Source: an uncultured Actinomycetes bacterium
GTDB taxonomy: Bacteria > Actinomycetota > Actinomycetes > S36-B12
Direction of reading: 5' to 3'
Assembly: GCA_903832025.1 (NCBI GenBank)
Contig: CAIKZY010000076.1
Span: 1 to 52,260, forward strand
Length of the DNA: 52,260 nt
Position 1 is the stretch's first letter. Each line of letters opens with the position of its first letter. The notes beneath the pieces are model-generated. The model worked only from the letters and a program-made list of their open reading frames with translations, was not told where the DNA came from and did not search any database. This document shows positions 12,433 to 42,060 of this stretch, piece by piece. The translations under genes were made by a program, and so were the position numbers.

Positions 12433-12439
12433 GGCGTGA

Positions 12440-12730
12440 TCATGACATCGGATGAATACTGATGATTGCCACCAGGGCAAGCCCGCCAACCAGCCACCAC
12501 AAGGCGATCAGGATCGCGGCAGTGGACATGCCGACGCCCTGGCCGATTGCTTCGGCCCGCTTGCGTCCCACGATTGCCAAGATCAATCCGATGACTGCGG
12601 GAATGAGGCAGATGAACCCCAGGCAGGAACAGACCAATGCTGCAAGCACGATGCCCGGTGCTCGAGGGGTTGTTACCTCGGGAACTGACCGATGCGTTGG
12701 CTGCTCCGATGTGGCGTGCGGATCCTCCAT
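12440..12730 (-). CDS. Small membrane protein (DUF4190-like)
   Basis: Two hydrophobic segments; ALVCSCLG...IGLILAIVG...G.GMSTAAI pattern. Confidence 0.6.
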   Translation of the reverse strand: MEDPHATSEQPTHRSVPEVTTPRAPGIVLAALVCSCLGFICLIPAVIGLILAIVGRKRAEAIGQGVGMSTAAILIALWWLVGGLALVAIISIHPMS

Positions 12731-12799
12731 GCCGTAACGCTACTGGGCACTTCGGCAGTGCGCCGATCGCCATAATGAGGTCTGACTCAGGAGGATCGG

Positions 12800-13561: not shown

Positions 13562-13637
13562 TCGATCGGCGCTCGCGCTGCCTGACGCGATCACGCGCGT
13601 GAGCCGAACTTCAGCAACGCGCAGGTAGGGTGCAACG

Positions 13638-14609: not shown

Positions 14610-14683
14610 GCGCGGTCGGGCCTGACGACAGGCACGCCTCAGCCAATGTCTGCGAAGGCAACCTGTGGCCTCATACTTGTCCG

Positions 14684-25733: not shown

Positions 25734-25902
25734 ACCACGGCACACGCCCATAGGCGGCAAGATCGCCGACCAAGACATGCCCGTCGCATGCCTGGCGATC
25801 GCTGGCTGGACATCTGCGTGCAGGACTCAGGGGTGGCATAACATGAGCGCGTTGAGGAGCCATTTCCTCGCGAAATCCTGATCACGAGTGTGGAGGCTGG
25901 CG

Positions 25903-26322
25903 ATGTCGACATTTCGACCGAGGCAGATGGGCATCGTTCACGACGTGATTGAGGGTCAAGTGCTGATCATTCGCAGTGACTCTGGCGCCTACTACTCGAT
26001 GGAGGGAACGGGCACTGTGGTGTGGGAAGGCATCCTGCGCGGTGAGTCAGTCGATGCGATCACAGCCAGCGCCGTGCAGCGATACCCGGATACCCCTGAA
26101 CTGGCAGCGGACATCCGGTACCTGTTCGCTGATCTGCAGCGCGAGCAGCTCATCGAAGAGACAACGAGCGCATCCAGCCCCGGCACGACAACGAGCACCC
26201 CGTGGCCGGATACCTGGACAGCTCCGGCACTGGCGATCTTCAATGACATGAAGGATCTGCTGCTGTTTGATCCGATTCACGAAGTTGGTCCCGAAGGCTG
26301 GCCATACGCATCACATGAGTGA
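25903..26322 (+). CDS. PqqD/RRE-family protein with C-terminal leader-like extension
   Basis: RRE pattern (IEGQVLII...GAYYSMEGTGTVVW...DIRYLFADLQREQLI), Ser/Thr linker, then WTAPALAIFNDMKDLLLFDPIHEVGPEGWP. Confidence 0.85.
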   Translation: MSTFRPRQMGIVHDVIEGQVLIIRSDSGAYYSMEGTGTVVWEGILRGESVDAITASAVQRYPDTPELAADIRYLFADLQREQLIEETTSASSPGTTTSTPWPDTWTAPALAIFNDMKDLLLFDPIHEVGPEGWPYASHE

Positions 26323-27316
26323 AGCCGATGCCGCGATCGCCTCGGTCTTGCAGCGCGCCCTGGCCGTCCAAGGCCTGACGCACGCCCAGGCTGCCTTCGG
26401 GCCGATGCAGCTTGAGCTCGGCTGCGATGACGATGAATTCGTGCGGTCCGTACAGCGCGCAGCGATCGCCGAGCAGTCGGCGCACGCGTGGCCGACCCTG
26501 CGGGTGCTGATGCTGACCGCTGCATCACTGCCGTTGGAGCACCTCCCGACGCCACTGCGGCCCACATTCAGGCATGCGGCGGTGCGCGTGATCACCACAC
26601 CCCGGTTTAGCTGTCTGGTCAATCAACACCTCCTCTGGGTCGCCGATCGTCAATCGGCGACGGTCCTGAGGTGGTCCCTGTCCTGCGAAGCAGTTCCGGA
26701 CTGGGAGTCGACCCGTCCATTGCGGTATGCGCTGAACTGGTGGGCCGCCGAGCATGGATCAGCCCTGCTTCATGCTGGCGTGGTCGCGTATCAGGGGAAA
26801 TCAGTCATCTTGACGGGAAAGGGAGGGACGGGGAAGTCCACAACCGTCTGCGCCTGTTTGGACTCACCGCTGTCGGTACTGGCCGATGATTACTGCCTCG
26901 TCCAACCGGCAACTGCTGATTCCGATGCCACCGCGCATGCCCTCTTCAGGGTCGGGCACGTTGATGCCCAGACAATCGCCTTACTGCCCTCACTGCGCAG
27001 CAGGGTCATCGTGGACGATCCGCAGTCAAAGTCGCTCGTGCGACTGATCGAGCAGCCACCGCGACCGGCGAGTATTGCCGCATTCGCCTCGATTACCCGT
27101 GCTCCCGGCGCGGACACGCTCATGCGTCCGACGTCCGCCAGTGCAGTGCTCCAGCAGGCAGCTCCCAGCACCATCGCACAAAGCTATGCCGGGCAGGAGC
27201 ACATCTGGCGAGTTCTGACGCAGATGGTCCAATCCAGCATCTGCGTCGATCTGCAGGTCGGCTCACTGTCGGACGTCCCGCAAGCGTTGCTGCAGACACT
27301 GCGGGACCAACCATGA
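26315..27316 (+). CDS. HPr-kinase-like P-loop kinase 1
   Basis: LLHAGVV, GKGGTGKST and LADDY motifs. Overlaps the upstream RRE gene. Confidence 0.8.
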   Translation: MSEADAAIASVLQRALAVQGLTHAQAAFGPMQLELGCDDDEFVRSVQRAAIAEQSAHAWPTLRVLMLTAASLPLEHLPTPLRPTFRHAAVRVITTPRFSCLVNQHLLWVADRQSATVLRWSLSCEAVPDWESTRPLRYALNWWAAEHGSALLHAGVVAYQGKSVILTGKGGTGKSTTVCACLDSPLSVLADDYCLVQPATADSDATAHALFRVGHVDAQTIALLPSLRSRVIVDDPQSKSLVRLIEQPPRPASIAAFASITRAPGADTLMRPTSASAVLQQAAPSTIAQSYAGQEHIWRVLTQMVQSSICVDLQVGSLSDVPQALLQTLRDQP

Positions 27317-28029
27317 TCACCCGTCCGGTGACCGTGGTCATCCCTGCGCACAATGCCGCGGGAACGATTGCCGCAACGTTGCGTTCACTGGGCAATCCCG
27401 CGCGCATCATTGTCGTCAATGATCGCTCACAGGACAGCACCGTGGAACAGATCACTGCATGCGGCATCGATGTTGACGTGCTCCACAGCACGCACCCAGG
27501 ACCTGGTGCTGCCAGGAACCACGGAGCGGTGCACGTCAGGACGCCATACATTGCGTTTTGCGATGCTGATGATCAATGGGTCCCGGGACGACTTGATGCG
27601 GACCTGGACATCCTGAGCCGCCGACCCGACATCGAGATTCTCCTGGGCAGCACCCGGTATGAAGCAACCGATGCAGCCTTGCTGGCCGGCCACGTGTTCC
27701 CCGACGACACGCAGAGCCAGGTGATCGCCCACTTCGGAGCGGCAACGATGCGCACGGCTGCCTTTCACCGGGTGGGTCCGATTCGCGAGGACAAAGCCAA
27801 CTTTGAGGATCTGGAGTGGTTCCTGCGTGCTCGCGATCTCGGTGTCGGCCTGGTAGCCCACCGCCGCATCGTTCAGCGTCGACTCATGCATCCATCAAGC
27901 ACCAGTCATGTGCATCCTGGCCGGCCCACGGACATGCTGGCGGTGCTGGCTGAATCGGTACGCCGCCGTGCAGACTCCGGTGTGGAGGTCCTGTCGTTGC
28001 AGGACAGTATTGATATGAATCTGCCATGA
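27313..28029 (+). CDS. Glycosyltransferase family 2
   Basis: VVIPAHN, VVNDRSQD, ARNHG, FCDADD and EDLEW motifs. Confidence 0.9.
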   Translation: MITRPVTVVIPAHNAAGTIAATLRSLGNPARIIVVNDRSQDSTVEQITACGIDVDVLHSTHPGPGAARNHGAVHVRTPYIAFCDADDQWVPGRLDADLDILSRRPDIEILLGSTRYEATDAALLAGHVFPDDTQSQVIAHFGAATMRTAAFHRVGPIREDKANFEDLEWFLRARDLGVGLVAHRRIVQRRLMHPSSTSHVHPGRPTDMLAVLAESVRRRADSGVEVLSLQDSIDMNLP

Positions 28030-29813
28030 AGGTGCTGTGGTGGACTGGGGAGTACCCTCCCGATGTCGGGGGCATCGCGACCGTTGCGCAACAGACCCTG
28101 GCGGCTCTGGCAGCACGTGGGATCAATGCCCATGCATTGATCGCCGCACGAGGTGACGAAGACGGCGTGGACGGCGCGATACCGCTGACGCGCCGGCCGA
28201 TTGCCGAATCGCTTATCGACAGCGACGCTGCCGCGTTCGCGCAGTGGATTGCCTTTGTTCGGAATTTCAAGGATCACCAGCGGGCCGATGTCTACCATGT
28301 GCACCCGGCTGACCCAAGCGTGCTCGCGCACCTGATGACCTTGTCGGCGCATCCTGCCCCGACCATCGTGACCTTTCACCAGCAGATGTTCTCCGTGCTT
28401 CCCTCCGCCGCACCCCAGTCGTTGATCGGACGACTGATCGCCCAGGCGCAGATTGTCACTGCGGTCTCGGCGGCCAGTGCGAACCAGGCGGTTGCGACAT
28501 TGCCGGAGATCGCCGACAAATTGATCGTGATTCCCAACGGACTGCAGGTGTCCGGACCGGTTCTTCCCCTGCCCAGTGCACCGCGGATCGTGGCCGTCGG
28601 TCGTCTTGTGCCCGTGAAGGGTTTCCATGACCTGATCCGGGCAATGGTCACCGTTGTTGAGCAGGTTCCCGACGCTCACCTGCACATCGTTGGTGATGGA
28701 CCTGAGCGTGGCGCGCTGGAGCAGATGTGCGAGCGGCTCGGCCTGACGACATCGATCACGTTCACCGGTGCGGTTGGGCAGGACCAGGTCCGCGCCCTGA
28801 TGGACGCCAGCACGATCGTGGCCATGCCGTCGACGGTTGAGGGCATGCCCATGGTGGCGCTGGAAGCATCTGAACGAGGCCGAGCCATCGTCGGTTCCAA
28901 TATCGGCGGCATTAACGAAGTCGTGCTGGATGGTGTTTCCGGTGTGCTCATTGACCGCAATGACGATTTTATTGACACCTTCGCCAGGATGCTGACCGAC
29001 CTCTTGACAGATCTGCAGCGGGCCGAGGCACTCGGTCTTGCCGCACGGGCACGCCTGGAAGACCGGCAGTCCGTGGATCGAGTGGCAGCCCTCTACGAGA
29101 TCGCGTATCGCGCGGTATGCAGCGATCGACCTGCGCCCCTGGTCAGCGTGATCATGCCCGCGCACAATGGCGAAGCCTTCATTCGACAAGCGGTTGAGTC
29201 GGTGCTCGAACAAGGTCTTGCAGATCTGGAACTCATCATCGTCGATGACGGCTCCACGGATGCAACGCTTCGGGTGCTTGCGCACGTGAGCGACCCACGC
29301 CTGATCGTCCTACCGCAGCCGAATCGGGGAAGCGGCAGTGCCCGAAATGCCGGCATCGCTATCGCCCGCGGTCAGTACATCGCCCACATTGATCACGACG
29401 ATCTGTGGCCCCATGATCGCCTGGCTTGCCTGTGGCAGGTGCTGGACGCGGACCCCGAAATGGATGCCTGCTTTGGGACGGCGATTGAATTCGCTGATCC
29501 GTCGATGCGTGGGAACTACGCGGTGCGCAGCGAGCCGAGGACCACGCGGTTCCCGACCACCGGACTGATTCGGGCTGCATTTCATCGCTCGGTCGGTCCA
29601 TTTCACAGCGAGCCCTTCGGGGACCAAGTGGATTGGTCAATACGGGCCCTGGATGCGGGTATGCGCTACGCCGAGCTCGCGAATATCGTCCTGAGACGGC
29701 GCATCCATGATTCGAACATGTCGCATCGAAATCCCCTCGACAAGGACATGAACAAGCTGCGGCTCCTCAAGCGCTCGCTGGATCAGCGCAAGGGCGACGA
29801 GGACCGGGCCTGA
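28026..29813 (+). CDS. Bifunctional glycosyltransferase (GT4 + GT2 fusion)
   Basis: N-half has YPPDVGG, VGRLVPVKG and EGMPMVALEA. C-half has VSVIMPAHN, VDDGSTD, ARNAG and IDHDDLW. Confidence 0.9.
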   Translation: MKVLWWTGEYPPDVGGIATVAQQTLAALAARGINAHALIAARGDEDGVDGAIPLTRRPIAESLIDSDAAAFAQWIAFVRNFKDHQRADVYHVHPADPSVLAHLMTLSAHPAPTIVTFHQQMFSVLPSAAPQSLIGRLIAQAQIVTAVSAASANQAVATLPEIADKLIVIPNGLQVSGPVLPLPSAPRIVAVGRLVPVKGFHDLIRAMVTVVEQVPDAHLHIVGDGPERGALEQMCERLGLTTSITFTGAVGQDQVRALMDASTIVAMPSTVEGMPMVALEASERGRAIVGSNIGGINEVVLDGVSGVLIDRNDDFIDTFARMLTDLLTDLQRAEALGLAARARLEDRQSVDRVAALYEIAYRAVCSDRPAPLVSVIMPAHNGEAFIRQAVESVLEQGLADLELIIVDDGSTDATLRVLAHVSDPRLIVLPQPNRGSGSARNAGIAIARGQYIAHIDHDDLWPHDRLACLWQVLDADPEMDACFGTAIEFADPSMRGNYAVRSEPRTTRFPTTGLIRAAFHRSVGPFHSEPFGDQVDWSIRALDAGMRYAELANIVLRRRIHDSNMSHRNPLDKDMNKLRLLKRSLDQRKGDEDRA

Positions 29814-30814
29814 AGGAATCGGATCCCGCTGCTCCACGGGGAAACTCGCGGAACAGCTGACCACGGCGGGCCTTGGCGGGCCTGCCGGATGTCATGGCGC
29901 CGCCGGGCAGCTGCCTGCATCCGCTGCCACGCCCCACCGGCAGCGATCTCGTGCAGGACGACCGCATCCATGGGCGCTGCGGACAGTTGCTCAATCACAG
30001 ACCGGGGAATATCGGCACCAACCTGACTCATGAGCCAGTTCAGTCCTTCAGCCACAAGTGGCCCGTACCCGCTGTCCACGGAATGTGCAAGGACGGACTG
30101 CCAAAATTCCGATGTGCGTGAGCCGTCCTGGAGCAACTGCATGGCATCAAGTGGCCACGTGATCGCTGCACTGGCGGGCGCCGTGATTCCCTCAACGATG
30201 GCAAGGGTCAGCAGACACCCATCCGATAGGGAATCCGCGACCGTGGATTCCATGGCTCCGCGTGCAAAGTTGGGCGGTGTTCGACGCAGCTGCGGGAACT
30301 CCCTGCCCCAGGTCAGCACCAGTGAGCGGCCATTGTCGTCAAGAAAGGCGCTGGTCATGCTGGCACGGGGACGATGGCGCATCGCCCATCCGTGAGCCGG
30401 CAGCACCTCCAAGGATCGCGTCCAGTCAGCGGCGCCAATCCACAGGTCGACCGTGGTGACCGGACGGTACGTGGACATGCTGGGGTCCAGCAGCAGGGCG
30501 CTGCCGCGGATCGGTCGGGCGGTGATGTCGTATCGCGTCAGCGCATCACGGGCCTGATGCAGGTGCAGCAGGGTCTGCTGATTGACCACCCAGGCTCGTT
30601 TCCTGAGTCCAAGGAGTAGCGGTGCGTCGGTGCCAAAGTCCAGGTACTGATCTCGGTGTGCCAGGTGATGGAGGATGGCGAATTCTCGGGATGCAGATTG
30701 CTGCAGATCATGTTCGGCGCGCCATGCGTCCCACGCCTGGACAGCGGCGTCTTCATCGGCCAAGGCTGCCCTCAGGAGCAGAGTGTCTGAGTCCGTCAGC
30801 GAGAGAATGCGCAC
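29783..30814 (-). CDS. Nucleotidyltransferase-family protein 1 (NTP_transf_5-like, degenerate motif)
   Basis: PIRGSAL...RPVTTVDLWI aligns to the LKG...R..GDxDL signature. The start (GTG 30814) is inferred. Confidence 0.65.
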   Translation of the reverse strand: MRILSLTDSDTLLLRAALADEDAAVQAWDAWRAEHDLQQSASREFAILHHLAHRDQYLDFGTDAPLLLGLRKRAWVVNQQTLLHLHQARDALTRYDITARPIRGSALLLDPSMSTYRPVTTVDLWIGAADWTRSLEVLPAHGWAMRHRPRASMTSAFLDDNGRSLVLTWGREFPQLRRTPPNFARGAMESTVADSLSDGCLLTLAIVEGITAPASAAITWPLDAMQLLQDGSRTSEFWQSVLAHSVDSGYGPLVAEGLNWLMSQVGADIPRSVIEQLSAAPMDAVVLHEIAAGGAWQRMQAAARRRHDIRQARQGPPWSAVPRVSPWSSGIRFLQARSSSPLR

Positions 30815-31037
30815 CGAGCCGCTCCTGTTCCGTGCCGTGATCGGCAGCGCGGCACCATTGCGTGTCGATGGCTCGCAGATGACCGCGTACGCGTGGAGGA
30901 ATCCTGGCACAGGTGCTCTTGGTATGGATCCACCGTGTCCTGACAGCCGCCACCGGTCGGCCGCACCGTAACGCCAAATGCTCGGCAAGCAACTGCATCA
31001 GCACACTCCGATGACACAGGTGGCACACTGGTGGATC

Positions 31038-32744
31038 ATGGTGGGCCAGACGTTGACCTTGCGGATCACTCCATCAGCGGCGGACTGCGTGGAGAATGTG
31101 TCCTCATCGAGGAACTGGACCCTTGACGATGGCCGCGTGCTGGCCGTCATCGCCGGTCCGCATGCCCTGGACCACACCGCAGTGGTGCAGTGGATGGATG
31201 CAGGCTGCCCGGATCCGGCACCGGTTCGCCAGGGATTCGCCGCGATCCTGGTCGACCCACGATCCGGTTCCACCCAGATGGCCAGCGGCGCACGCAGTGA
31301 GGTCACCCTGCATTGGGCCCTGGAGGGGCAAAGCCTGCTCGTGTCATCGCACCTGCGGGCGTTGTTGGAAGCGCAGGCCACACCGACCTTTGATGAGGAG
31401 GGGATGGCGCGCTACCTGTGGCGTGCCAGTGACCCTTCAGAGACGATGTATGCAGGGGTCACGCGGCTGCCTGCCGGCCATCACGCACGGTGGCGCCCGG
31501 GAACGCGGCCGCACCTCATGCGCTGGTTCTGGCCACAGCGCACGGACGTTTCCACTGCTGCGAACTTTCCAGGTCAGCTCGGTGACGTCATTGCCGATGC
31601 GGTGCGACAGTCACTGCCGTCAGGCGGCACGGTTGCCTCACATCTGTCCGGCGGACTGGACTCCACGACCGTGACTGCCCTGGCTGCCGCGCAGGTTCGC
31701 GGTCATGGCGGTACGATCCAGGCGCTGAGCCACCTGGTCACCCCGGAACGCTGGCCAGCGTGGCTGAGTCCTGATGCCGATGATTCCCCGTTCGTCGAGG
31801 CGTTTGTCCGAGGCACACCGGGTGTGCAACTCCATCGATTCGATACCCCGCGCCGGAGCATCCTGTCGGCAACGCGAGCGGTGTTTGAGGCAACGGCGTA
31901 CCCCATGCTCAATCCCATAAATGCCCCCTGGCTGCTGGACATCGATGATTGGGTGCGGGCCAACGACGTTGCCCTGGTCCTGACGGGCGTGCATGGCAGC
32001 TTGGGGTTCTCGATCACCCGAGGCCATCAGTACCGACGAGCGATCAGATCAGGCCAGTTTGGGCTCCTGAAACGCGACATGGTTGCCCGACACAGGCTGG
32101 GTGACCGATGGCGAAATATTGGCGCCACGACGGTGTATGAGTTCGCCCCGCGGGCCACTACGACGGTGTTGCGGGTAATCGGCCGCCATGAACCGCGTGC
32201 CAGCACAAACCCGTTGATCATTGCGCCCAAACCCACGGACATGGTCGAGCCAGGAGTCCACAAGGCGGATCGGGAATGGTGGAGCCAGTCCGTCCTTCTG
32301 GATCAACCGGCCCAGTCGCTGATGCAGTTCCCGGTGACAGGGGCGTGGGCCAGTGATCCGCTGGGTGACAGCGAGGTGATTCGCACCCTGTTCTCCGCGC
32401 CAGCATCGGCCTGGCTCGGTGACGGCATGGACCGCGCGTTAGCCCGACGAACGATGCAGGGAGTGGTCGTCGATGAGGTGCGCTTGCGTGCCGGACGAGG
32501 TCTGCAGGGCGCGGACTTCGGTGAGGCGGCGCGCAGCCAGGATCGCGAATTTCAGGAAGCGCTCGAAGAGGTCTCTGCTTCCCCGCTGGCCAACCGATTC
32601 ATCGATGTGCCCAGGCTCGCGTCCACGATGCGGCCGCATACTCCGTACGCCGGCCGATCAGCGCTGGACTGGCAACTGCTTGAAGGACGCATGCTCGGCT
32701 TTGGCCTGTATCTGGCCTGGATCGAAGGATTCCTGCGCCGATGA
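31038..32744 (+). CDS. Lasso-peptide cyclase (asparagine-synthetase-like isopeptide ligase, C protein)
   Basis: SHLSGGLDST ATP motif, YAGVTRLPAGH, LTG, DPLGD and DRALARRTMQGVVVDEVRLR. No N-terminal Cys glutaminase nucleophile. Adjacent to the RRE gene. Start uncertain. Confidence 0.85.
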   Translation: MVGQTLTLRITPSAADCVENVSSSRNWTLDDGRVLAVIAGPHALDHTAVVQWMDAGCPDPAPVRQGFAAILVDPRSGSTQMASGARSEVTLHWALEGQSLLVSSHLRALLEAQATPTFDEEGMARYLWRASDPSETMYAGVTRLPAGHHARWRPGTRPHLMRWFWPQRTDVSTAANFPGQLGDVIADAVRQSLPSGGTVASHLSGGLDSTTVTALAAAQVRGHGGTIQALSHLVTPERWPAWLSPDADDSPFVEAFVRGTPGVQLHRFDTPRRSILSATRAVFEATAYPMLNPINAPWLLDIDDWVRANDVALVLTGVHGSLGFSITRGHQYRRAIRSGQFGLLKRDMVARHRLGDRWRNIGATTVYEFAPRATTTVLRVIGRHEPRASTNPLIIAPKPTDMVEPGVHKADREWWSQSVLLDQPAQSLMQFPVTGAWASDPLGDSEVIRTLFSAPASAWLGDGMDRALARRTMQGVVVDEVRLRAGRGLQGADFGEAARSQDREFQEALEEVSASPLANRFIDVPRLASTMRPHTPYAGRSALDWQLLEGRMLGFGLYLAWIEGFLRR

Positions 32745-32813: not shown

Positions 32814-33071
32814 ATGAAGGTGATTAGAAGGGTTGGCGTGGTCGATTCCCATATTGATGGGCGCCTGGTCGCGTTGAATTCCGATCTTGAGTTCGTGGAG
32901 CTCGACGTCATGGGGGAGTTCATCTGGTCGCAGACCGCTACTCCCACCGATACAGATCGCATCGTCCAGGCGGTGACCGCCCAATTTGAGGTCGATGTTG
33001 CTACCTGCCGCGAGGATGTCATCCGCTTTCTCCATGAGCTCCACAGTGCCCACTTGATTGACCTCAGCTAG
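32814..33071 (+). CDS. PqqD-family RiPP recognition element (lasso B1)
   Basis: 85 aa, IDGRLVAL...LDVMGEFIW...FEVDVATCREDVIRFLHEL. GGAG RBS. Confidence 0.9.
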   Translation: MKVIRRVGVVDSHIDGRLVALNSDLEFVELDVMGEFIWSQTATPTDTDRIVQAVTAQFEVDVATCREDVIRFLHELHSAHLIDLS

Positions 33072-33174: not shown

Positions 33175-34164
33175 GTGACGTCATTGGGCGAGTGTGATTC
33201 CAACCTGGCGTGCCTGCATGGTATCCACCTTCGCGCTGACTTCGCATTGCGTGGATGGCCGGCAGCAGACCTCGCGAATCCGCAGGACTGCTGGACGCTA
33301 GAAGTCCATCGCGGGCAGATCGTGAATGCCGACCCGATTCAACGCGATCTGGGTCTGGTGACCGGCAACCTGCGCCACGAGGTCATCAGCGGGCGCGAAC
33401 ACGTAGCGTTGACGATGCGCAGTTTGCAGGACTTCACGGAAACAAGTATCAACGTTGATCTCTCGCGGCGGCAGATCAGCGTGCAGTGTGATCTGTGGTT
33501 TCCCGGAAGTGAAGCCCTTCTGCTCTACCTCCTGCACACCCGCGTCATCCCCGCAATCGCCGCGCTCACCCGGAAGTCCGCGGTACTGCATGCAACAGCC
33601 ACGCACGTGCCTGAAGGCGCGATCGTGATCTGCGGTCGGTCAGGTGTGGGAAAGTCGACGCTCGCCGCCGGGCTGATCAGTTCAGGTGCGCTGCTCTTGG
33701 GCGATGAGCCGATCGTGATCGATCGGGGTGTCCACCGCAGCGTGGCCCAGCCAAGCGTGCGATCCCTTCGCCTTGAGCAGGCGACCTTCGCTGCAGAGCT
33801 TCTTGCCAATCAGGGATGGACCAGCCATGCCGGACACGACAAGTCGGTCTGGTCCCCGCCGATTGCGGCGGGCCACGCCGAAGTGAGCCCGGTTGCCGCA
33901 GTCCTGGTTCTCGGCGAACGCATTCAGTCAGGTTCGACGCCGGATTTCGTGCGCCTTTCCCCGGTTGCGGCGACGCAGGCCCTCATGGATCAATCGCACC
34001 TTTCCGTCGACCTCATTGATGCGCAGGCCCGTCGATTCACCGCGGCGGCGGCCATTGTGGAGTCCACTCCGGTGTTCGAAGTGCACATGCCCGATGACGC
34101 GGACTCGATCCACTCGGCCGTGAGGCTGCTTCGCGCGGGCATTTCCGAAGCCGGCGTGCGATGA
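33175..34164 (+). CDS. HPr-kinase-like P-loop kinase 2 (lasso-peptide kinase-like)
   Basis: VLHATA, GRSGVGKSTLA and LLGDE motifs. Confidence 0.82.
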   Translation: MTSLGECDSNLACLHGIHLRADFALRGWPAADLANPQDCWTLEVHRGQIVNADPIQRDLGLVTGNLRHEVISGREHVALTMRSLQDFTETSINVDLSRRQISVQCDLWFPGSEALLLYLLHTRVIPAIAALTRKSAVLHATATHVPEGAIVICGRSGVGKSTLAAGLISSGALLLGDEPIVIDRGVHRSVAQPSVRSLRLEQATFAAELLANQGWTSHAGHDKSVWSPPIAAGHAEVSPVAAVLVLGERIQSGSTPDFVRLSPVAATQALMDQSHLSVDLIDAQARRFTAAAAIVESTPVFEVHMPDDADSIHSAVRLLRAGISEAGVR

Positions 34165-35333
34165 CTGGGGAGCACCATCCACAACCGAAGGTCGTCGCGG
34201 ATCCGGCCACGCAGCAGCTGCTGACTGAGGCCATCCGATATGTCATGTCAATCGAGCATGGCTCCCGACCGGCAGCATCCAATCTGTCGCAGATCGATCG
34301 CGCAGCGTTCCTTGCTGCGGTTCGTCGTCAGCGCATGGAGATATTCTTGAGCCCCCATCTGGAAGATCTGAGGCTTCCTGATGAGGTCTGTGAGCAGATC
34401 AGCGCGTGGGCTGGTCAGCTCAAGATGCGCGCCATGTCCTGCGCAGTGGCAACGCGCGAGGTCTGGGCCGCGCTGACTGCATGTGGGATTGATGCGCTGA
34501 TCATCAAGGGAATTCTACTCAGCCTGCAGACGACTGGCACCGTGGCCGGCAGAGGCCCCGGTGACGTCGACCTCTGGGTTCGGGGAGCCGACGTCGGTGC
34601 TGCTGCCGAAGAACTGCACCTGCTTGGCTATCGCCGAAGTGCCTGGGCACCCACATCGGATTTCACCACCTGGCGCGGTCGCTACACGCAATGGGCTGCC
34701 TTTGAGTTGCCAATGGACCGAAACGGCCTACCCCTTGACCTCCATTGGCAACTCGCGGGGGCACGCCATGGGCTACCGACGTTTGACGAAGCCTGGAAGC
34801 AGCGTGCCGTGGTCGATATTGGCGGCACGCCGGTGAGCACGTTATCCGCAGAGCATGCGTTCGTGCACAGCTGTTCACACGCTCATCGTGATGGCTGGGG
34901 CTGGCTGCGTTCATTGATTGACATCGATCGGCTTTCGCGCCTGGTGACGTTCGACCCAGCAACTGCCCGGTCATCACGAGCCGTCCGACTGTCGACTGCG
35001 ATGGCCTATGACGTTACGGGAAGCGCCTCGCTTGGTCCGTGGATGCAGTCGGACAGCCCTGCGGTCAAGCGCGCTCGGCGAATCGCGCACACCAAGCAAT
35101 CAGATCTCGGATGGTCTGTTGCCGGTGCCTGGACCGTCCAGTCGACGTGGGACTGGCTGCACCAGTCATTGCAGCTGACCGGCAATGCGGGCGATATCTG
35201 CCGGGTACTGTCATCGTTCGCGCTGCCGCCTGAGTTTTTCGTCGAGCCGTCCTCAGACGGGCCTGTGCCCGTGCCTCGGGCGCTGTTGGCCCGCTTTCGG
35301 AAAATGGCCCGCAGAGTCAGTCACCAGGAGTGA
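34161..35333 (+). CDS. Nucleotidyltransferase-family protein 2 (NTP_transf_5-like)
   Basis: IIKGILL, GRGPGDVDLWV, LDLHWQL, H..HA..DGW and LRSLIDI motifs. ATGA-coupled to kinase 2. Confidence 0.85.
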   Translation: MTGEHHPQPKVVADPATQQLLTEAIRYVMSIEHGSRPAASNLSQIDRAAFLAAVRRQRMEIFLSPHLEDLRLPDEVCEQISAWAGQLKMRAMSCAVATREVWAALTACGIDALIIKGILLSLQTTGTVAGRGPGDVDLWVRGADVGAAAEELHLLGYRRSAWAPTSDFTTWRGRYTQWAAFELPMDRNGLPLDLHWQLAGARHGLPTFDEAWKQRAVVDIGGTPVSTLSAEHAFVHSCSHAHRDGWGWLRSLIDIDRLSRLVTFDPATARSSRAVRLSTAMAYDVTGSASLGPWMQSDSPAVKRARRIAHTKQSDLGWSVAGAWTVQSTWDWLHQSLQLTGNAGDICRVLSSFALPPEFFVEPSSDGPVPVPRALLARFRKMARRVSHQE

Positions 35334-35829
35334 CATTGATGTCGTCAGGCTCCAGACCGGATGGCACGGCAAGGACCATGGTGGGCTGAAACCCGTCAGC
35401 AGCAGGTCCGCCTACCACCGCTCCGCGACGGCCAACCAGCCATGCGTGCGCATCCCAGGTACTGTCAGGGTTTCGACGCAGACCGATGACCACGACACCG
35501 CTGGCACCTCTGCGGCGGAGCATGATCTGGGCAGCTGCTGCCTGGGCCAGGCAGCTGGGCTGGCCGGGCAGCCAGCGAACGCCGCGATGAACAGCCCAGC
35601 TCACCGACGCCTCCAACTGGTTGTCTGCTGCTGTTGGCATGGTGCGGTCTGGGTATTCAGTCCACGCCGTTGGCACCGGGCGCACCGAACCGAGCACTCC
35701 GGCCCACCAGCGCATCGGCAGCATGGCGCGCGCGAAGGTTGCCAGGGCAATCAGCGTTATCGCTTCGCCGGTGAGCGCACGTCCATGCCAGCGATCGGCG
35801 ATCGGCGTCTGAGGTCCGTCAGTCATCAT
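35317..35829 (-). CDS. Lasso-peptide leader peptidase B2 (transglutaminase-like)
   Basis: SCLAQAAAAQIMLRRRG, VVIG and DAHAWL motifs carrying the catalytic Cys and His. Confidence 0.9.
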   Translation of the reverse strand: MMTDGPQTPIADRWHGRALTGEAITLIALATFARAMLPMRWWAGVLGSVRPVPTAWTEYPDRTMPTAADNQLEASVSWAVHRGVRWLPGQPSCLAQAAAAQIMLRRRGASGVVVIGLRRNPDSTWDAHAWLVGRRGAVVGGPAADGFQPTMVLAVPSGLEPDDINVTPGD

Positions 35830-35862
35830 CTGAAGCATACGTGCAGGGCATAGCATTCCAAC

Positions 35863-37623
35863 GTGGTCGGCGAAAACGAAGCAGGGATATTCGCGTCCCT
35901 GCGATCAGATGCGCTGTCACTGCTGCGCACGGCCTTTCGGCTCTCTCCGCGAAGAAGCGTCCTGCAACTGCTGTTTTTGAGCATCAGTGGATTTACCGGG
36001 AGTGTCGGCCTGCTCCTGCTCATTCCCATCGTTGACACCATCGCGCATCCAGGTGCTCGACTCACGCTTCCGCTGGTGGGGAGTGTGAGTCTGGGAGCCT
36101 TCCCGTTGTGGAGCATGCTCCTGGCCTTCGTCTGCCTCATTGGCGTGCAGGCAGCCGTTCAACGTCTTGGCCTGATTAATGCCATGCGCATCCAGCAGGA
36201 AATTGTCGATTTCCTTCGGCAGCAGGCGTTCAATGCTGTGCTGCACGCACGCTGGGAATTCATCCTGTCCAAGCGGCGAAGCGATTTCGTCGAAGTGATC
36301 ACCGTCGGCGCGATGCGATCAGGCATTGCGTTTCAGCAGCTGACGCAAGCTGCTGTGGCACTCGTGTTCGGCTTGGCAACCGCAGCCGTGGCGATCCTGG
36401 TCTCGCCGGTGATCGCCGGACTGTCAATTCTCGGGGTGGTCCTGGCTGGCTGGATTCAGCTCAGAAGCGCTCGGCCCGCATATGCCCTCGGCCGGCAATA
36501 CGGGGAACGCTCACGTCATCTGCAAGCGGTGGTCACCGACTCGATGGACTCACTGCGACTGATTCGAGCCCACGACGCCTCGCGGCTGTGGGCCGAGCGC
36601 ATGTCCGAGGCATTTACTCTGGCCCGCGATGTTCAGGTCTCGACAGTCAAGAGGACATCGGCGACTGCCGCGTGGACCTCGGTGCTCCTGGCCGGGGCAG
36701 CCGCGCTGCTGATCCTGATTGCGGTGCAACTGTCCGTACCGCCGACACTGATTATCGTGATCGTGCTGCTCGTGGCACGCATGGCACGACAGATGCAGCT
36801 GCTGGCCACGTTGTTCGTGCAACTTGCCGGATTGCTCCCTGCGGTGGGGGACCTTGCCGATCTCACCCGACAGGCTCGGGACTGCGCGGAGGTGCCGGCT
36901 GATGGACACGGTGACTCACTGGGATCCGTGGTTTCAGCCGATCCTCTCGTGGAACTTCGTCAGGTCACGTACTGCTATCCCGGGTCCCATGCCGGGGTGC
37001 GTGAGGTCAACATGATGTTGCGCAGAGGAGCAATCACCGCGCTCAGCGGTCGCACCGGTTCAGGAAAGTCCACGACGGCCGACCTGGTTCTTGGCCTCTT
37101 GACTCCGCAATCCGGCGAGGTCCTCGTGTCCGGCGAGGTGTTGACCTCGGCTGATCTTGCAGCGTGGCGGCGCCATGTTGCGTACGTACCGCAGGAGACC
37201 GTGCTGATTCCCGGGACACTCCGCGAGAACCTGACGTGGTCGGCGCCCACTGCTGTGTCGGACGAGCAATGCTGGAAGGCCCTGGACCGCTCCGCTGCCA
37301 CATTCGCCCATCAGCTGCCCGAGGGCCTGGACACCCTGCTCGGTGATCGCGGCGTGCGTCTGTCGGGCGGGGAACGCCAACGTGTGTCCATTGCTCGAGC
37401 ACTCCTGCGCGAGCCACAGCTTCTGGTCCTAGACGAGGCGACGTCGGCATTGGATGACGACACGGAGGAGGAGATTCTCCACCTGTTGTCGCAACTCATT
37501 CCTCAGGTGACCGTCTTGGTGATTGCCCATCGACGCTCGACCCTGGAGGCGGCCGACACCGTGGTCCACCTCAGCCATGGTCGTGAAGATGGGAATTCGC
37601 GTCGGCCCATGCGTCGGCCATAG
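35863..37623 (+). CDS. ABC exporter, fused permease/ATPase (lasso D-like)
   Basis: N-terminal TM domain, then GRTGSGKST, LSGGERQR, LDEATSALD and IAHR motifs. Confidence 0.92.
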   Translation: MVGENEAGIFASLRSDALSLLRTAFRLSPRRSVLQLLFLSISGFTGSVGLLLLIPIVDTIAHPGARLTLPLVGSVSLGAFPLWSMLLAFVCLIGVQAAVQRLGLINAMRIQQEIVDFLRQQAFNAVLHARWEFILSKRRSDFVEVITVGAMRSGIAFQQLTQAAVALVFGLATAAVAILVSPVIAGLSILGVVLAGWIQLRSARPAYALGRQYGERSRHLQAVVTDSMDSLRLIRAHDASRLWAERMSEAFTLARDVQVSTVKRTSATAAWTSVLLAGAAALLILIAVQLSVPPTLIIVIVLLVARMARQMQLLATLFVQLAGLLPAVGDLADLTRQARDCAEVPADGHGDSLGSVVSADPLVELRQVTYCYPGSHAGVREVNMMLRRGAITALSGRTGSGKSTTADLVLGLLTPQSGEVLVSGEVLTSADLAAWRRHVAYVPQETVLIPGTLRENLTWSAPTAVSDEQCWKALDRSAATFAHQLPEGLDTLLGDRGVRLSGGERQRVSIARALLREPQLLVLDEATSALDDDTEEEILHLLSQLIPQVTVLVIAHRRSTLEAADTVVHLSHGREDGNSRRPMRRP

Positions 37624-37902: not shown

Positions 37903-38034
37903 ATGTCGGACAACGAGCATCGCAAGCCATACGCAGCGCCGCAAACGCCGCGCGTGGTCTCGACGCTGGCACTGTCATCCGCGACATTCACGTATGCAGG
38001 GACAGACTCGGGCTTCTACGCCTCAGTCACCTGA
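37903..38034 (+). CDS. Putative lasso precursor A1, 43 aa: MSDNEHRKPYAAPQTPRVVSTLALSSATFTYAGTDSGFYASVT
   Basis: Translated by hand. GAGGGAG RBS, YxxP leader motif, one Asp in the core region; paralogous to A2 and A3. Confidence 0.85.
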   Translation: MSDNEHRKPYAAPQTPRVVSTLALSSATFTYAGTDSGFYASVT

Positions 38035-38258: not shown

Positions 38259-38396
38259 ATGTCAGAAAACGTAGATCGCAAGCCGTACGTAGCACCTGAG
38301 GCGCCGCGCGTTGTCTCGACACTCGCGATGTCAGCTTCGATGTACTTTGGCGGGTCTGGAGCTGACAACGCCTTGTACTCTTCCACACCTGTGTAA
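38259..38396 (+). CDS. Putative lasso precursor A2, 45 aa: MSENVDRKPYVAPEAPRVVSTLAMSASMYFGGSGADNALYSSTPV
   Basis: Translated by hand. AGAGGAG RBS, same leader pattern and conserved G-x-D. Confidence 0.85.
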   Translation: MSENVDRKPYVAPEAPRVVSTLAMSASMYFGGSGADNALYSSTPV

Positions 38397-38612
38397 CCAC
38401 CTCGCCGAAGTCAGCAGGATTCCGAACTTCTGGGCGGACGGGTTCGGCACGTGAAGATTGCAGCGTGGGGAATCTCGATTCCTGGTCCTGCCGATGTCGT
38501 AATCGTTCAGCGGGAGACCGGTACCGCAAGTCCGACATCCAGCTTGGGCAGCAGTCGGGGAATGAATTGGATGCCAGAATGGTGTCCAATCGCATCGGTA
38601 GGGAGGGATTTC

Positions 38613-38747
38613 ATGTCCGACATCGCAGATCGCAGGCCCTATGTAGCGCCGGCCGCTCCACAGGTTGTCGCGACGATCGTGGGAGCGGCGGTGACCTACT
38701 ACGGTGGGTCTGGAGCCGATAGTGGTTTCTACGCTTCATACAACTGA
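38613..38747 (+). CDS. Putative lasso precursor A3, 44 aa: MSDIADRRPYVAPAAPQVVATIVGAAVTYYGGSGADSGFYASYN
   Basis: C-terminal part of track ORF 38451..38747. GGGAGG RBS before ATG 38613; paralogous to A1 and A2. Confidence 0.85.
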   Translation: MSDIADRRPYVAPAAPQVVATIVGAAVTYYGGSGADSGFYASYN

Positions 38748-38879: not shown

Positions 38880-39857
38880 GTGGACGTGAAGCACTCCTTG
38901 CCCTCAACACCGTTGGTGAGCGTCATCATTCCTGTCCAGGATCGAATTGATTTCCTGGGTGCTGCACTGGCAAGTGTCCGAAATCAAACCGTCCATGACC
39001 TAGAAGTGATCATCGTCGATGCCGGGTCGACCCAGGATGTCGGCGGGTTCGTCAGGCATATTCAACGGACCGACTCCCGGTTTCGCTTCGTGCGAAGCGA
39101 TGCCAGGCTGAGCGCGGCAGAGGCCAGAAACCTGGGTTTGCAGCAAGTGCGGGCGCCGTACGTCGCTCATCACGACTCAGACGACATCATGCAGCCGATG
39201 CGGTTGCACCAGCAATTGTCTGCTTTCGACGCACCAGATCTTGAGTGTGTGGCTGGATGCATGCTGGGGATGAGTGCAGCAGGACTGCGTCTTTCGACCA
39301 TGGCCTCGCAAGGGACGACGGATGCTGCAACGGCGATGACTGATCTAGAAGTCAGATGGCGCTTTCCAATTTTGATGCCTTCGATGACCTCAACGCTCAT
39401 GATGCGGACGCAAACCCTGCGGGATATGGGCGGATTTTCTACGAACTACACCACCTGCGATGACTATGTCACCATGGCTACTCTGCTTGACCGGGGAAGA
39501 GTCGTGCGCATTGGCGAATATGTCACAAAGTACCGACAGCACGACCGTCAAATTTCCACGTCGAGGAATATCGAGCAACAAGTGCAGCTGTCGCTGCTGC
39601 GACAGCGCATCATCGCCTCGCGAGTCAGCGCCAAGGTCGCACTCGGTCCGGTCATGACCCTCACCCTGCCCAACCTGCCCGAATCAACGACGCACCGATA
39701 TCACCGTGAGGCGCTGTCCCTGCTCGACGCGCTGTTAGAGAGCTTTCTGGACGAGCATCAGCCACGTGAACAGGATCAAAAGTGGATCCTGCACGACTAT
39801 CGACAGCGAAGGCACGCCTTGATGCAGCAAGCCGGCCTTCGTGATGACACCGCATGA
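38880..39857 (+). CDS. Glycosyltransferase family 2
   Basis: VSVIIPV, IIVDAGS, ARNLG, HDSDDI, CDDY and YRQH motifs. Confidence 0.9.
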   Translation: MDVKHSLPSTPLVSVIIPVQDRIDFLGAALASVRNQTVHDLEVIIVDAGSTQDVGGFVRHIQRTDSRFRFVRSDARLSAAEARNLGLQQVRAPYVAHHDSDDIMQPMRLHQQLSAFDAPDLECVAGCMLGMSAAGLRLSTMASQGTTDAATAMTDLEVRWRFPILMPSMTSTLMMRTQTLRDMGGFSTNYTTCDDYVTMATLLDRGRVVRIGEYVTKYRQHDRQISTSRNIEQQVQLSLLRQRIIASRVSAKVALGPVMTLTLPNLPESTTHRYHREALSLLDALLESFLDEHQPREQDQKWILHDYRQRRHALMQQAGLRDDTA

Positions 39858-39888
39858 CGCGGCAGCCCCGCCCACGGCTCATGAACTG

Positions 39889-40959
39889 CTAGATGACAGG
39901 GACCTGCCAGAAGACGGCGGACCAGTCGATTACCTGGAGCTCTGCTGTGATGTGGTGCTTTGCGCGGAACTCCTCCACCGCCGCACGGCAGGTATCAATG
40001 CAGTAGTCGTCGATGATGACGAAACCACCTGGAGTGACTTTCGCGTAGAGCGACTCCAGCACTTCAGTGGTGGACTGGTGGAGATCGCCGTCCAGACGCA
40101 GCAGGGCGATCTGATGGATTGGCGCCGTCGGCATCGTGTCGCTAAACCAGCCTTGCAGGAATTCAACCCGATCGTCCAGGAGCCCGAAGGCCGCAAAGTT
40201 CTCACGCACGTCGTCAAGCGAGACGGCAATTTTCCCTGCGGATTTGGCCCAGAACGCGTCATCGGGATATCGCTCAATGTCGGGGACCGGTAGCCCTTCG
40301 AATGAATCGCACACCCACACGCGTCGCTGCGGGTCTTCGTGTGCCTCCAGTACGGCCTTCATCATGATGGTCGCCCCGCCCCGCCAGACTCCTGTCTCGA
40401 CGAAGTCGCCGGGAATCTGCTCATTCATGACGTATTCAGCGAGCGCGCGGACATTTCGCAGTCGTGGAAAGCCAATCATCGTGAATCCCGGCATGCTTCG
40501 AAGGCCATGGTTGACCGCGTAGCCTGCGAGCAAGGAATCCACGTCGGGGCCTTGCGGGCCATTCTCGGGCGCCTTGTACAACAGGCCCAGCAGCGCGCGC
40601 TCGGTCAGGTCCAGGTAGCGGGCACGGAGGTCCCGAGAAGCCTGAGCGGACGTAGGCACCGGCTGGATGTCACCCTCAACGAGTCCCAGGGATCGAAGAT
40701 CCTCAGTAAAGCGTCGCACATCGGACTGAAGTTGTTCAGCTTCCGCGTCAAACTCCTCGAGCAGGCGACTGACGGTCTTGTCAACCGAGGATGTCTCGCG
40801 CAAGGCGGTCCACATCGAGCGACCAACCTCGTCAAGCTCGATGAGCTCCAAGGTCACCATGTTCACCACGACGCACGCTTGATCATCAAACTCCTCGTGA
40901 GCATGTGAGATCACCCGCACTTCGTCCCAGGGCGTTGGGGAAGATTCGTTGGTGCTCAT
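39889..40959 (-). CDS. RRE (PqqD)-TylF/MycF/NovP-type O-methyltransferase fusion
   Basis: N-terminal ~95 aa RRE (VVVNMVTLELIELDEVGRSMW...LLEEFDAEAEQLQSDVRRFTEDLRSLGLV). C-terminal TMIG, PGDFVETGVWRGG, DSFEGLP, GWFSDT, LRLDGD and IIDDY motifs. Confidence 0.88.
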   Translation of the reverse strand: MSTNESSPTPWDEVRVISHAHEEFDDQACVVVNMVTLELIELDEVGRSMWTALRETSSVDKTVSRLLEEFDAEAEQLQSDVRRFTEDLRSLGLVEGDIQPVPTSAQASRDLRARYLDLTERALLGLLYKAPENGPQGPDVDSLLAGYAVNHGLRSMPGFTMIGFPRLRNVRALAEYVMNEQIPGDFVETGVWRGGATIMMKAVLEAHEDPQRRVWVCDSFEGLPVPDIERYPDDAFWAKSAGKIAVSLDDVRENFAAFGLLDDRVEFLQGWFSDTMPTAPIHQIALLRLDGDLHQSTTEVLESLYAKVTPGGFVIIDDYCIDTCRAAVEEFRAKHHITAELQVIDWSAVFWQVPVI

Positions 40960-41232
40960 CACATGGACCCTCTCATTGAGTGCAGTCATCCGCGAATTTC
41001 CTGCGCGCGAACTCCTTGAGGTTACAGGGCGACTGATTCCAGGTGGTGGTGAGCCGCATGTGCGCAAGCAAAACTCCCCCTCGGGAGTCCGAAACCGTGT
41101 TCGGGCATGGGAATCACGGGCAGACCACGATGGGCAACTGCGATCACGCGGTCGCACTGGGGTTCAAGAAGTCACGCATCAACCGCACCCGGCCCGGCTG
41201 AGCCATTGCCCAGTAGTCCGTGGGGCGAAGTC

Positions 41233-42060
41233 CTACGCGCCGGCCAGTGTCACGATGGCATCGGTGGCGAAGCCGAGCAGCAGCCCAATGAAGATGCCCC
41301 ATGTGGTGACGGTCTTGACGTTCATCTTGCGCGCGACGGACAGCAGTTCGATGATCACGTACAAAATCGAGCCAGCCGCCAGCGTCAAGAAGATCACTGA
41401 CGCCACATCTGAGGTGTATCGCTGGCCGACTACAGTGCCCAGCAGTGTTGGACCGCCGCCGATGACACCCAGCAGCAACAGATACCCCCAGCTGGGCCGC
41501 ACCCGCTCTGCGGCCATTGGAGCCACGATGCCGAATCCTTCGGTGGCATTGTGCGCAGCGAATCCGATCACCAGCAGCACGGCCAGGCTGACTGCGCCAT
41601 TGGCTGCGCTATTGCCAATGGCCAAGCCCTCGGCAAAGTTGTGCAGGCCAATACCTACAGCGATCATCATGGCCAGGGATTTCACCGTGTGCGTGTGCGC
41701 CGCAGGGCTGAATTCCGCCACTGCCGCTGCGCCAGGACCGATGGGCTTGCGTGCGGCCGCGGTGCGGGCAATCCAGCGGTCGAAGTAGACCAGGGTGATT
41801 AAGCCGGTGCCGATCCCCACGGCAAACAGGAACGCCAGCCCAGCCACGGTGCCCGGTTGCTTGGCCGTCAGTGCACTGTCGATCGGCTGCCACGCATGGG
41901 TCAACACGTCCCAGAGCAAGAAGAGCAAGATGCCGATAGCCAGGGCGTTGAGCCAGGCCCGGGTCTTGGGCATCTTGGCGCGAATGCGGCCCAGGGGAAG
42001 CCCCAGCAAGATCGTGGCCCCGGCGATGGCGCCGAGCAGCGTGATCTGCACAGAACTCAT
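41233..42060 (-). CDS. ZIP-family metal transporter
   Basis: GIGLHNFAEGLAIG, HNATEGFGI and AAGSILYV motifs; ~8 TM. Confidence 0.9.
   Translation of the reverse strand: MSSVQITLLGAIAGATILLGLPLGRIRAKMPKTRAWLNALAIGILLFLLWDVLTHAWQPIDSALTAKQPGTVAGLAFLFAVGIGTGLITLVYFDRWIARTAAARKPIGPGAAAVAEFSPAAHTHTVKSLAMMIAVGIGLHNFAEGLAIGNSAANGAVSLAVLLVIGFAAHNATEGFGIVAPMAAERVRPSWGYLLLLGVIGGGPTLLGTVVGQRYTSDVASVIFLTLAAGSILYVIIELLSVARKMNVKTVTTWGIFIGLLLGFATDAIVTLAGA

Follow-up and report, generated by a model that had tools for sequence, protein, structure and literature searches.

A PqqD-type recognition element fused to a TylF-type O-methyltransferase in a candidate lasso peptide gene cluster

The fusion gene and its two domains

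The stretch analysed here, called the window, comprises 52,260 nt of contig CAIKZY010000076.1 from an uncultured actinomycete, and the coordinates of the gene in question are given on it. On the minus strand, at 39889..40959, lies a gene in which a recognition element for peptides that are ribosomally synthesised and modified after translation (RiPPs), a RiPP recognition element (RRE) of the PqqD type, is joined to a TylF-type O-methyltransferase; both domains are named by Pfam. Counted from the ATG at 40959, the product has 356 aa and begins with MSTNESS. The open reading frame (ORF) is open throughout 39889..41157 on the same strand, with 422 aa when counted from the most distant GTG. The database protein P0001, which is 99% identical, starts at another ATG, at 40989, from which the product has 366 aa. 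A purine-rich stretch is found 8-9 nt upstream of both candidate ATGs, and the predicted start is ambiguous by 10 residues, with no effect on the domains. A mis-called ORF, or two adjacent genes taken for one, was considered and rejected, since the frame is open and the same single-chain architecture is found in relatives from independent assemblies. A scan of 39700-41300 for promoters and terminators gave nothing promoter-like; a single terminator-like site lies within the gene, on the other strand, which is no more than shuffled sequences give.

The match to PqqD (PF05402) covers residues 29-94 and positions 2-67 of the 67-position profile (E 5.6e-13, 49.5 bits against a gathering cutoff of 23.4). 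The match to TylF (PF05711) covers residues 158-352 and profile positions 67-263 of 264 (E 3.2e-83, 279.4 bits against 23). This is the architecture that the initial annotation had read from the letters and translations alone, and both domains lie above their gathering cutoffs. The motifs that it had paired between the N-terminal part and the discrete RRE protein of the same cluster (B1, 32814-33071) are also real, as BLASTP aligns ELDEVGRSMW with ELDVMGEFIW and DVRRFTEDL with DVIRFLHEL, and residues 1-110 are 29% identical to B1 over 59 residues (pairwise E 5e-9). The NCBIfam models for lasso PqqD proteins match the fused RRE below their curated cutoffs, 27.8 bits as compared to 80, and NCBIfam gave no above-cutoff name to the fusion or to the kinases, cyclase or precursors of the cluster.

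Pfam, AlphaFold2 (AF2) models, Foldseek and a profile comparison with the PDB place the RRE domain at residues ~20-94 (40678..40902, minus strand). It is followed by a flexible linker of ~14 residues (~95-108; 40636..40677, minus strand), recognised by its low predicted local distance difference test (pLDDT) values and its variability in the alignment. The remainder, residues ~109-356 (39892..40635, minus strand), is a TylF/NovP/MycF-type S-adenosylmethionine (SAM) O-methyltransferase domain, as seen from Pfam, the matches to NovP, SpnH and MycF, Foldseek and conservation. The AF2 model of the full-length protein, made from a 19-sequence alignment, has a mean pLDDT of 85.3 and shows the RRE, the linker and then a Rossmann-type methyltransferase. 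In this model linker residues 98-108 have a pLDDT below 50, and both the length and the sequence of the linker vary across the aligned fusion proteins. Residues 1-100 modelled alone from 15 sequences gave a pLDDT of 86.9 and the same secondary structure elements; in these two independent models the RRE consists of strands at 20-24, 29-33 and 39-42, and then helices at 44-56, 59-69 and 74-90.

The six best Foldseek matches to the RRE model in the PDB are all lasso peptide RREs with a bound leader peptide. The best solved match is TbiB1, with a query-normalised template modelling (TM) score of 0.72-0.77 and a root-mean-square deviation of 1.4-1.9 Å over 82-84 columns; its best hits, with the leader bound, reach TM 0.75-0.77 at 1.4-1.5 Å. 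TfuB1 has a TM score of 0.72, and the RREs of other RiPP enzymes come next. When the profile of the fused RRE was compared with the PDB, TbiB1 was found at E 7.6e-16, the lasso PqqD chaperone 9x90_B at 1.8e-9, TfuB1 at 4.3e-9 and PqqD at 1e-7. The initial annotation had named an N-terminal region that fails to score or fold as an RRE as the result that would speak against it; the region does score, in Pfam and by profile, and it folds in the models, which identify it as a beta3-alpha3 RRE of the lasso-B1 type. It shares its fold with TbiB1 and TfuB1, which are also the solved sequences nearest to its profile, and the local precursors carry a YxxP motif. The difference is that TbiB1 and TfuB1 stand alone and serve the leader peptidase B2, whereas the fused RRE is attached to a tailoring enzyme in a cluster that also keeps a discrete B1. 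A word search with residues 1-110 alone in a collection of 5.8 billion proteins returned only the near-identical P0001 (one of 148 candidates) and is uninformative on the wider kin of the RRE.

NovP (2wk1) aligns with residues 97-352 of the fusion at E 3.9e-64, and SpnH and MycF match the methyltransferase domain at E 1e-57 to 1e-63. The NovP alignment recovers the N-terminal quarter that was missed by the Pfam match, which implies that the methyltransferase domain is complete, in agreement with what had been claimed for it. The best Foldseek matches to the full-length model are the same three enzymes, with target-normalised TM scores of 0.89 (NovP), 0.93-0.96 (SpnH) and 0.85-0.94 (MycF). Residues ~97-356 align with them end to end, and D-G-D, D-D and ETGVWRGG are conserved. 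In NovP the motifs DSF, LRMDGDL and IVDDY correspond to DSF, LRLDGDL and IIDDY in the fusion. D290, D292 and D318 are invariant among 19 fusion proteins, where conservation is at least 90% for D218 and D317. The aspartates of the D-G-D and D-D motifs in NovP and MycF reportedly serve as the base and as ligands of a metal, which in turn chelates hydroxyls of the sugar. As far as its motifs can tell, the methyltransferase looks intact for catalysis. The solved relatives found at E <1e-5, which are NovP, SpnH, MycF and CalS11, are all sugar O-methyltransferases according to their PDB titles. NovP, SpnH and MycF are, however, single-domain proteins acting on sugars of macrolides, aminocoumarins and spinosyns, whereas the fusion carries an N-terminal RRE, belongs to a RiPP cluster, diverges in the lid region and shares only 39-44% identity with them in the structural alignment.

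Among 70 longer TylF relatives, 33 are fused to a glycosyltransferase (GT), 20 of them to a GT2 (PF00535) and 13 to a WbsX-type GT (PF14307). GT plus TylF is therefore a recurrent unit, to which an RRE has been added here. PF05402 was found in none of the 70, in a search that was not exhaustive and that missed the 649-aa fusion protein P0121. Near relatives of the TylF domain are also fused to tetratricopeptide repeats, coiled coils, a CmcI-type rhamnosyl methyltransferase and class I methyltransferases. Judged by these architectures, the TylF domain is a frequently re-targeted catalytic module.

Distribution and neighbours of the fusion

In the 5.8-billion-protein collection, taken as 90%-identity clusters, the 120 best clusters include 21 that hold PF05402 together with PF05711, and these are 41-99% identical to the query. 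In the remaining clusters TylF stands by itself or beside different partners, and the methyltransferase part is ~50% identical. Both Pfam domains are present in all of the aligned fusion relatives (19/19). In a library clustered at 50% identity, an RRE is carried by six of the 150 best representatives: P0019, P0121, P0123, P0124, P0126 and P0249. Of these 150, 22 were scanned with Pfam and five of the 22 had PqqD; the RRE of P0019 was taken from a precomputed Pfam list. Two further candidates, P0129 and P0132, were rejected as fusions. They match the full-length fusion profile, starting at position 6 or 22, but Pfam finds no PqqD in them, and hhalign against the RRE profile gave no match, with probabilities of 0.1 and 0.6. 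In P0121 the RRE-TylF unit is preceded by an additional N-terminus of ~300 residues, in which Pfam finds nothing.

A tree was made from the methyltransferase domain alone, by a quick search on 77 rows and 245 columns, in which 50 of 150 non-fusion proteins of at most 420 aa (every third one) were included. In this tree 26 of the 27 fusion rows group together, with a value of 93 in the SH-like approximate likelihood ratio test (SH-aLRT). The exception is P0249, which has both PqqD and TylF and falls apart from the others, among stand-alone TylF proteins. It may represent a second, independent fusion.

The fusion is rare. Two of the 80 loci kept from a species-genome collection cover the RRE (L001 and L002), as do two of 80 from a metagenome collection (L090 and L125), and L125 is too short to show its neighbourhood. 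The fusion was found in none of 40 relatives, four of which have a distant TylF only, and in none of 400 genomes drawn evenly from the phylum, where 19 have TylF-only genes, one of them the unpublished genome G383.

Four loci have usable flanks, namely the window, L001, L002 and L090, and in each of them an orthologous GT2 glycosyltransferase is the tail-to-tail neighbour of the fusion. In the window this partner is found by Pfam at 38880..39857 on the plus strand, and the gap between the two genes is 31 bp. The orthologues are 36-37% identical to it over the full length, as compared to 31% over 115 aa for the other GT2 of the window. A HprK-like kinase, precursors with YxxP and an Asn-synthase homologue are found beside the fusion in L001, L002 and L090. 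An NTP_transf_5 protein and a discrete RRE are present in L001 and L090, the contig of L002 ending just past its precursors, and B2 is also found in L090. A search for the architecture and its neighbourhood had been proposed in the initial annotation; the fusion does recur, and GT2, kinase, cyclase and precursor neighbours accompany it in 4/4 loci with flank.

Two observations concern the neighbours themselves. The partner GT2 has a C-terminal extension of ~100 residues without a Pfam match (residues ~225-325), which is kept in the orthologues of L001 and L090 and could be a partner- or peptide-binding module. The ABC transporter that serves as exporter in L090 carries a C39 peptidase domain at its N-terminus, and a HlyD-type protein comes next (12021-15281), whereas that of the window is a plain ABC transporter, and this raises the question of which protease cuts the leader in L090.

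The gene cluster and its precursors

The cluster starts, on the plus strand, with a 144-aa ORF encoding a third PqqD-domain protein (25888..26322; Pfam PqqD, 39.1 bits) that overlaps the start of a HprK-like P-loop protein, K1 (26267..27316, plus strand). K1 has a weak Pfam match and scores 41.1 bits with HprK_rel_A of NCBIfam, the cutoff being 200. Then follow, still on the plus strand and by Pfam, a GT2 glycosyltransferase (27313..28029) and a GT4-GT2 double glycosyltransferase (28026..29813). A 401-aa ORF on the minus strand (29783..30988) resembles NTP_transf_5 below the threshold, at 18.5 bits as compared to 31.2. It lies antisense amid the plus-strand operon and may be a second, divergent nucleotidyltransferase or no gene at all. 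The Asn-synthase homologue C, a candidate lasso cyclase, is found at 30978..32744 on the plus strand (Pfam Asn_synthase, 56.5 bits; NCBIfam lasso cyclase, 71.2 against 525), and is followed by the discrete RRE B1, which has 85 aa (32814..33071, plus strand; Pfam PqqD, 54.6 bits).

Further along the plus strand are a second HprK-like P-loop kinase, K2 (33175..34164; Pfam Hpr_kinase_C, 27.8 bits against 33.3; NCBIfam HprK_rel_A, 40.8 against 200), and an NTP_transf_5 nucleotidyltransferase, N (34161..35333; Pfam, 111.8 bits against 31.2). A B2 leader peptidase of the transglutaminase-like family PF13471 lies on the minus strand at 35317..35856 (62.5 bits in the genome scan and 61.8 on the ORF). 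It had not been spotted in the earlier annotation, and its presence makes "before leader removal" a real step. The ABC exporter D (Pfam ABC_tran and ABC_membrane) is encoded at 35863..37623 on the plus strand. B1, B2 and an Asn-synthase-like cyclase thus occur together in the cluster. The kinase-like proteins and the cyclase are, by their scores, divergent members of their families at best. PqqD domains number three in the 2.2-Mb genome, and every one of them falls within the cluster, at 25888-26322, at 32814-33071 and in the fusion (Pfam-matched part 40678-40875), which suggests one RRE per enzyme group.

The arrangement is similar to that of the paeninodin and pseudomycoidin clusters of Firmicutes, which make phosphorylated and phospho-glycosylated lasso peptides and, according to the available parts of the literature, combine a HPr-kinase homologue and a nucleotidyltransferase with A, B1, B2, C and D genes. 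The window holds these kinds of gene as well, the nucleotidyltransferase clearly and the kinase as P-loop candidates that score below the cutoffs. In the same parts of the literature, those clusters are without a dedicated GT2 or GT4 and without a sugar methyltransferase, and their Ser is C-terminal. The cluster of the window is instead actinobacterial, judging from the names of its relatives, and counts four GT domains, two kinase-like genes and three RREs, while the Ser that its precursors conserve is internal. Outside the cluster, ~16 kb upstream, there is a separate glyco group on the minus strand (6212-9883) with a GH130-family phosphorylase, an ORF without a Pfam match and a GT4.

Three precursor genes, found by alignment of the precursors, lie on the plus strand between the exporter and the partner GT2, beyond which the fusion closes the cluster: A1 (37903..38034, 43 aa), A2 (38259..38396, 45 aa) and A3 (38613..38747, 44 aa), the last one starting from an internal ATG of the ORF 38451-38747. 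The alignment holds nine peptides, from the window, L001 (2137-2685) and L002 (58-575). In the numbering of A1, residues R7, Y10, P13, P16, V19, G33, D35 and S41 are invariant (9/9). The leader pattern R-x-P-Y-x-x-P-x-x-P is invariant as well, and all nine peptides contain YxxP, which the accessible text of PMC12710340 gives as a characterised lasso recognition sequence.

The invariant residues may tentatively be placed on a lasso core. In the usual lasso register the leader Tyr is at position -17. If Y10 is taken as that residue, the core of A1 starts at A27 and the invariant D35 becomes core residue 9. This would allow a nine-residue ring and a tail of 8-10 residues that holds a conserved Tyr and the invariant Ser. 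Lasso precursors typically have Thr at -2, a small residue at core position 1 and Asp or Glu at core position 7-9. In the register used here position -2 is Ser and not Thr, and the first core residue can be A, M, T, V, N, Q or K.

A proposed role for the fusion, and the alternatives

We consider it on balance probable that the fusion protein, guided by the leader, O-methylates a sugar that has been assembled on the precursor, and does so while the leader is still in place. The step would lie downstream of the kinase, the nucleotidyltransferase and the GT2, and upstream of B2 and the cyclase. The fused RRE would bind the R-x-P-Y-x-x-P-x-x-P leader of A1-A3 and hold the methyltransferase near the core. 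The core would at that stage already be glycosylated, the sugar most likely sitting on the conserved Ser near the C-terminus, possibly through a phosphate, by the action of the HprK-like kinase, the NTP_transf_5 protein and the neighbouring GT2. The TylF domain, taken to depend on a metal and SAM, would then O-methylate a hydroxyl of the precursor-borne sugar, ahead of leader cleavage by B2 and of ring formation by the Asn-synthase homologue. If methylation needs the leader, it has to precede both B2 cleavage and ring closure. The words glycopeptide and sugar methyltransferase are used here by virtue of family membership.

Parts of this scheme have precedents. According to the portions of PMC8498205 and PMC9266682 that were available, HPr-kinase homologues phosphorylate a Ser of linear lasso precursors, and in the case of pseudomycoidin the nucleotidyltransferase gene is needed to add one or two hexoses to the Ser phosphate. 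The same portions describe known lasso tailoring enzymes as acting on linear precursors (PMC8498205, PMC9266682). The initial annotation had suggested a leader-bearing glycopeptide as the substrate. The domains, the fold and the conservation behind that idea stand, while the binding of the leader, a sugar on the peptide as acceptor and the order of events are what we infer from them.

Several points weigh against a leader-guided methylation of a peptide-borne sugar. There are two other RREs in the cluster, and the fused one is not obviously needed. The kinases (~41 bits against 200 with HprK_rel_A) and the cyclase (71 against 525) are under the curated cutoffs, and no sugar-nucleotide synthesis genes were seen in the cluster by Pfam annotation. 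The precursor of L090 (7623-7784) is a longer peptide, and the core register given above does not suit it. None of the nine aligned precursors ends with Ser; the invariant Ser, S41 in A1, is placed 2-6 residues before the C-terminus. In the TylF domain, the lid region (residues ~109-157) has diverged and its model is poor, with a pLDDT of 61-63, and the Pfam match starts only at profile position 67, so the acceptor could differ from a classical deoxysugar. Finally, a complex prediction of the RRE and a precursor gave a score of 0.37, which is in a range where, by the tool's own account, predictions are wrong in most cases except when the guess was likely beforehand.

The acceptor is where the first alternative differs. 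The RRE may guide the enzyme to the precursor and the TylF domain may methylate the peptide itself, at a Tyr, Ser or Thr hydroxyl, at an Asp or C-terminal carboxylate, or at the Ser phosphate. Both lasso O-methylations that have been characterised do hit the peptide, at the C-terminal carboxylate by StspM/LasF and at an Asp by the protein isoaspartyl methyltransferase (PIMT) homologues of cellulonodin-2 and lihuanodin, as stated in the available text of PMC9266682. The core has suitable residues in the invariant D35 and S41 and the conserved Tyr, and the divergent lid also speaks for a different acceptor. Like the fusion, StspM/LasF and the PIMT homologues are connected with SAM-dependent O-methylation of lasso peptides, StspM on the linear precursor, but they come from other families, have peptide carboxylate or Asp as acceptors, and are not described as RRE fusions in that text (PMC9266682). 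Furthermore, the Asp motifs common to NovP are retained in the fusion. The solved relatives are all sugar enzymes, the orthologous GT2 always accompanies the fusion and nearly half of the longer relatives (33/70) are fused to a GT, which together favour a sugar as the acceptor. We therefore regard methylation of the peptide as unlikely.

The second alternative concerns the RRE. It is conceivable that the fused RRE is vestigial, or a docking or regulatory module directed toward the GT2, B2 or the cyclase, and that the methyltransferase works independently of the leader, its substrate being either a sugar (free, or linked to a nucleotide or a lipid) or the mature peptide. A discrete B1 and a third PqqD protein are already present in the cluster, and the distant relative CalS11 methylates TDP-rhamnose before its transfer, according to its PDB title. 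In the available text of the RRE-Finder study, the authors took many methyltransferase hits to be false positives (10.1101/2020.03.14.992123). The complex prediction supports leader binding weakly. It was made for residues 1-100 and the precursor with alignments of 19 rows for the RRE and nine for the precursor, and the best of three controls scored 0.00. The contacts agreed to at least 82% between runs, and the partner had a pLDDT of at least 56. In the benchmark of the tool, the mark was passed in 58 of 80 cases for solved complexes and in 2 of 110 for mismatched pairs; scores of 0.60 or lower were obtained for just 7 of the 80 solved complexes, and for both mismatches that passed. These counts hold only roughly for our run, in which custom alignments were used. 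Solved RRE-leader complexes exist, so a pass may reflect likeness to them and not real binding, and the prediction is at most a small nudge toward the binding of the leader by the RRE.

Against a non-binding RRE stands that a Pfam-significant RRE has been kept in 19/19 relatives, down to ~41% identity. It is modelled with confidence and has the complete beta3-alpha3 topology, and its profile is nearest to the leader-binding B1 proteins of lasso clusters. YxxP is kept in the precursors, and a flexible tether is what would be expected for substrate delivery. We find it rather improbable that the RRE has no part in bringing the leader to the enzyme. That the GTs and the methyltransferase instead serve a cell-envelope glycan, and adjoin the peptide genes without a shared product, is very improbable: stand-alone and GT-fused TylF proteins are common in many bacteria, with a likely role in polysaccharides or glycolipids, and GT-rich regions occur elsewhere in the window, such as the GH130 and GT4 genes mentioned above, but the RRE is covalently part of the methyltransferase, the pair of GT2 and fusion is seen only with peptide machinery, in 4/4 loci from diverged sources, and the fusion was not found in the 40 relatives and the 400 sampled phylum genomes, though 19 of the latter have TylF-only genes.

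Leader-guided methylation of a sugar on the precursor can be taken one step further. The product would then carry a tail with a phosphate-linked glycan capped by an O-methyl sugar, and every decoration step, from phosphorylation by the kinase through sugar addition and GT2 extension to the methyl cap, would be leader-directed, the three RREs passing on the same YxxP leader. We put this forward tentatively, as possible and not as probable. If true, it would be the first RiPP with a leader-recruited sugar O-methyltransferase of the TylF type, and the first lasso peptide bearing a tailored (methylated) glycan. A full-text literature search, thin on subscription journals, gave no paper naming an RRE-TylF or PqqD-TylF fusion and no description of a methylated glycan on a lasso peptide. 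The proteins themselves are already in public databases, with automatically assigned names like "PqqD family peptide modification chaperone" and "O-methyltransferase".

Fusions of RREs to enzymes are already known, and in the available text of the RRE-Finder work, RRE-GT (PF00535) and RRE-carbamoyltransferase proteins were pointed out before (PMC12710340, 10.1101/2020.03.14.992123). These follow the same logic, in which an RRE on a tailoring enzyme delivers the leader-bearing substrate. The main texts, as far as available, mention no TylF partner, and the supplementary list of 1,158 co-occurring Pfam domains may include PF05711. A fusion of an RRE to a tailoring enzyme is the clearest genomic sign of a modification made on a leader-bearing peptide, and an RRE-bearing TylF predicts that a glycan is built and tailored on a ribosomal peptide before leader removal; for this cluster it predicts a lasso peptide with a methylated sugar. 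The system is compact and testable, with an RRE of 100 residues, substrates of 43-45 residues and a methyl transfer of +14 Da. The presence of PF05402 and PF05711 in one protein also gives a bioinformatic handle on ~20 related clusters. If other cores are tolerated, leader-guided sugar methylation could be used in engineered glycopeptides.

At the start of the contig (289-4803) there are genes for a ParA-like ATPase, two ORFs without a Pfam match, a DnaB-like helicase and a helix-turn-helix protein, which look like maintenance genes of a plasmid or an integrated element. The peptide cluster was not found in the 40 relatives, and its mobility is therefore worth a closer look.

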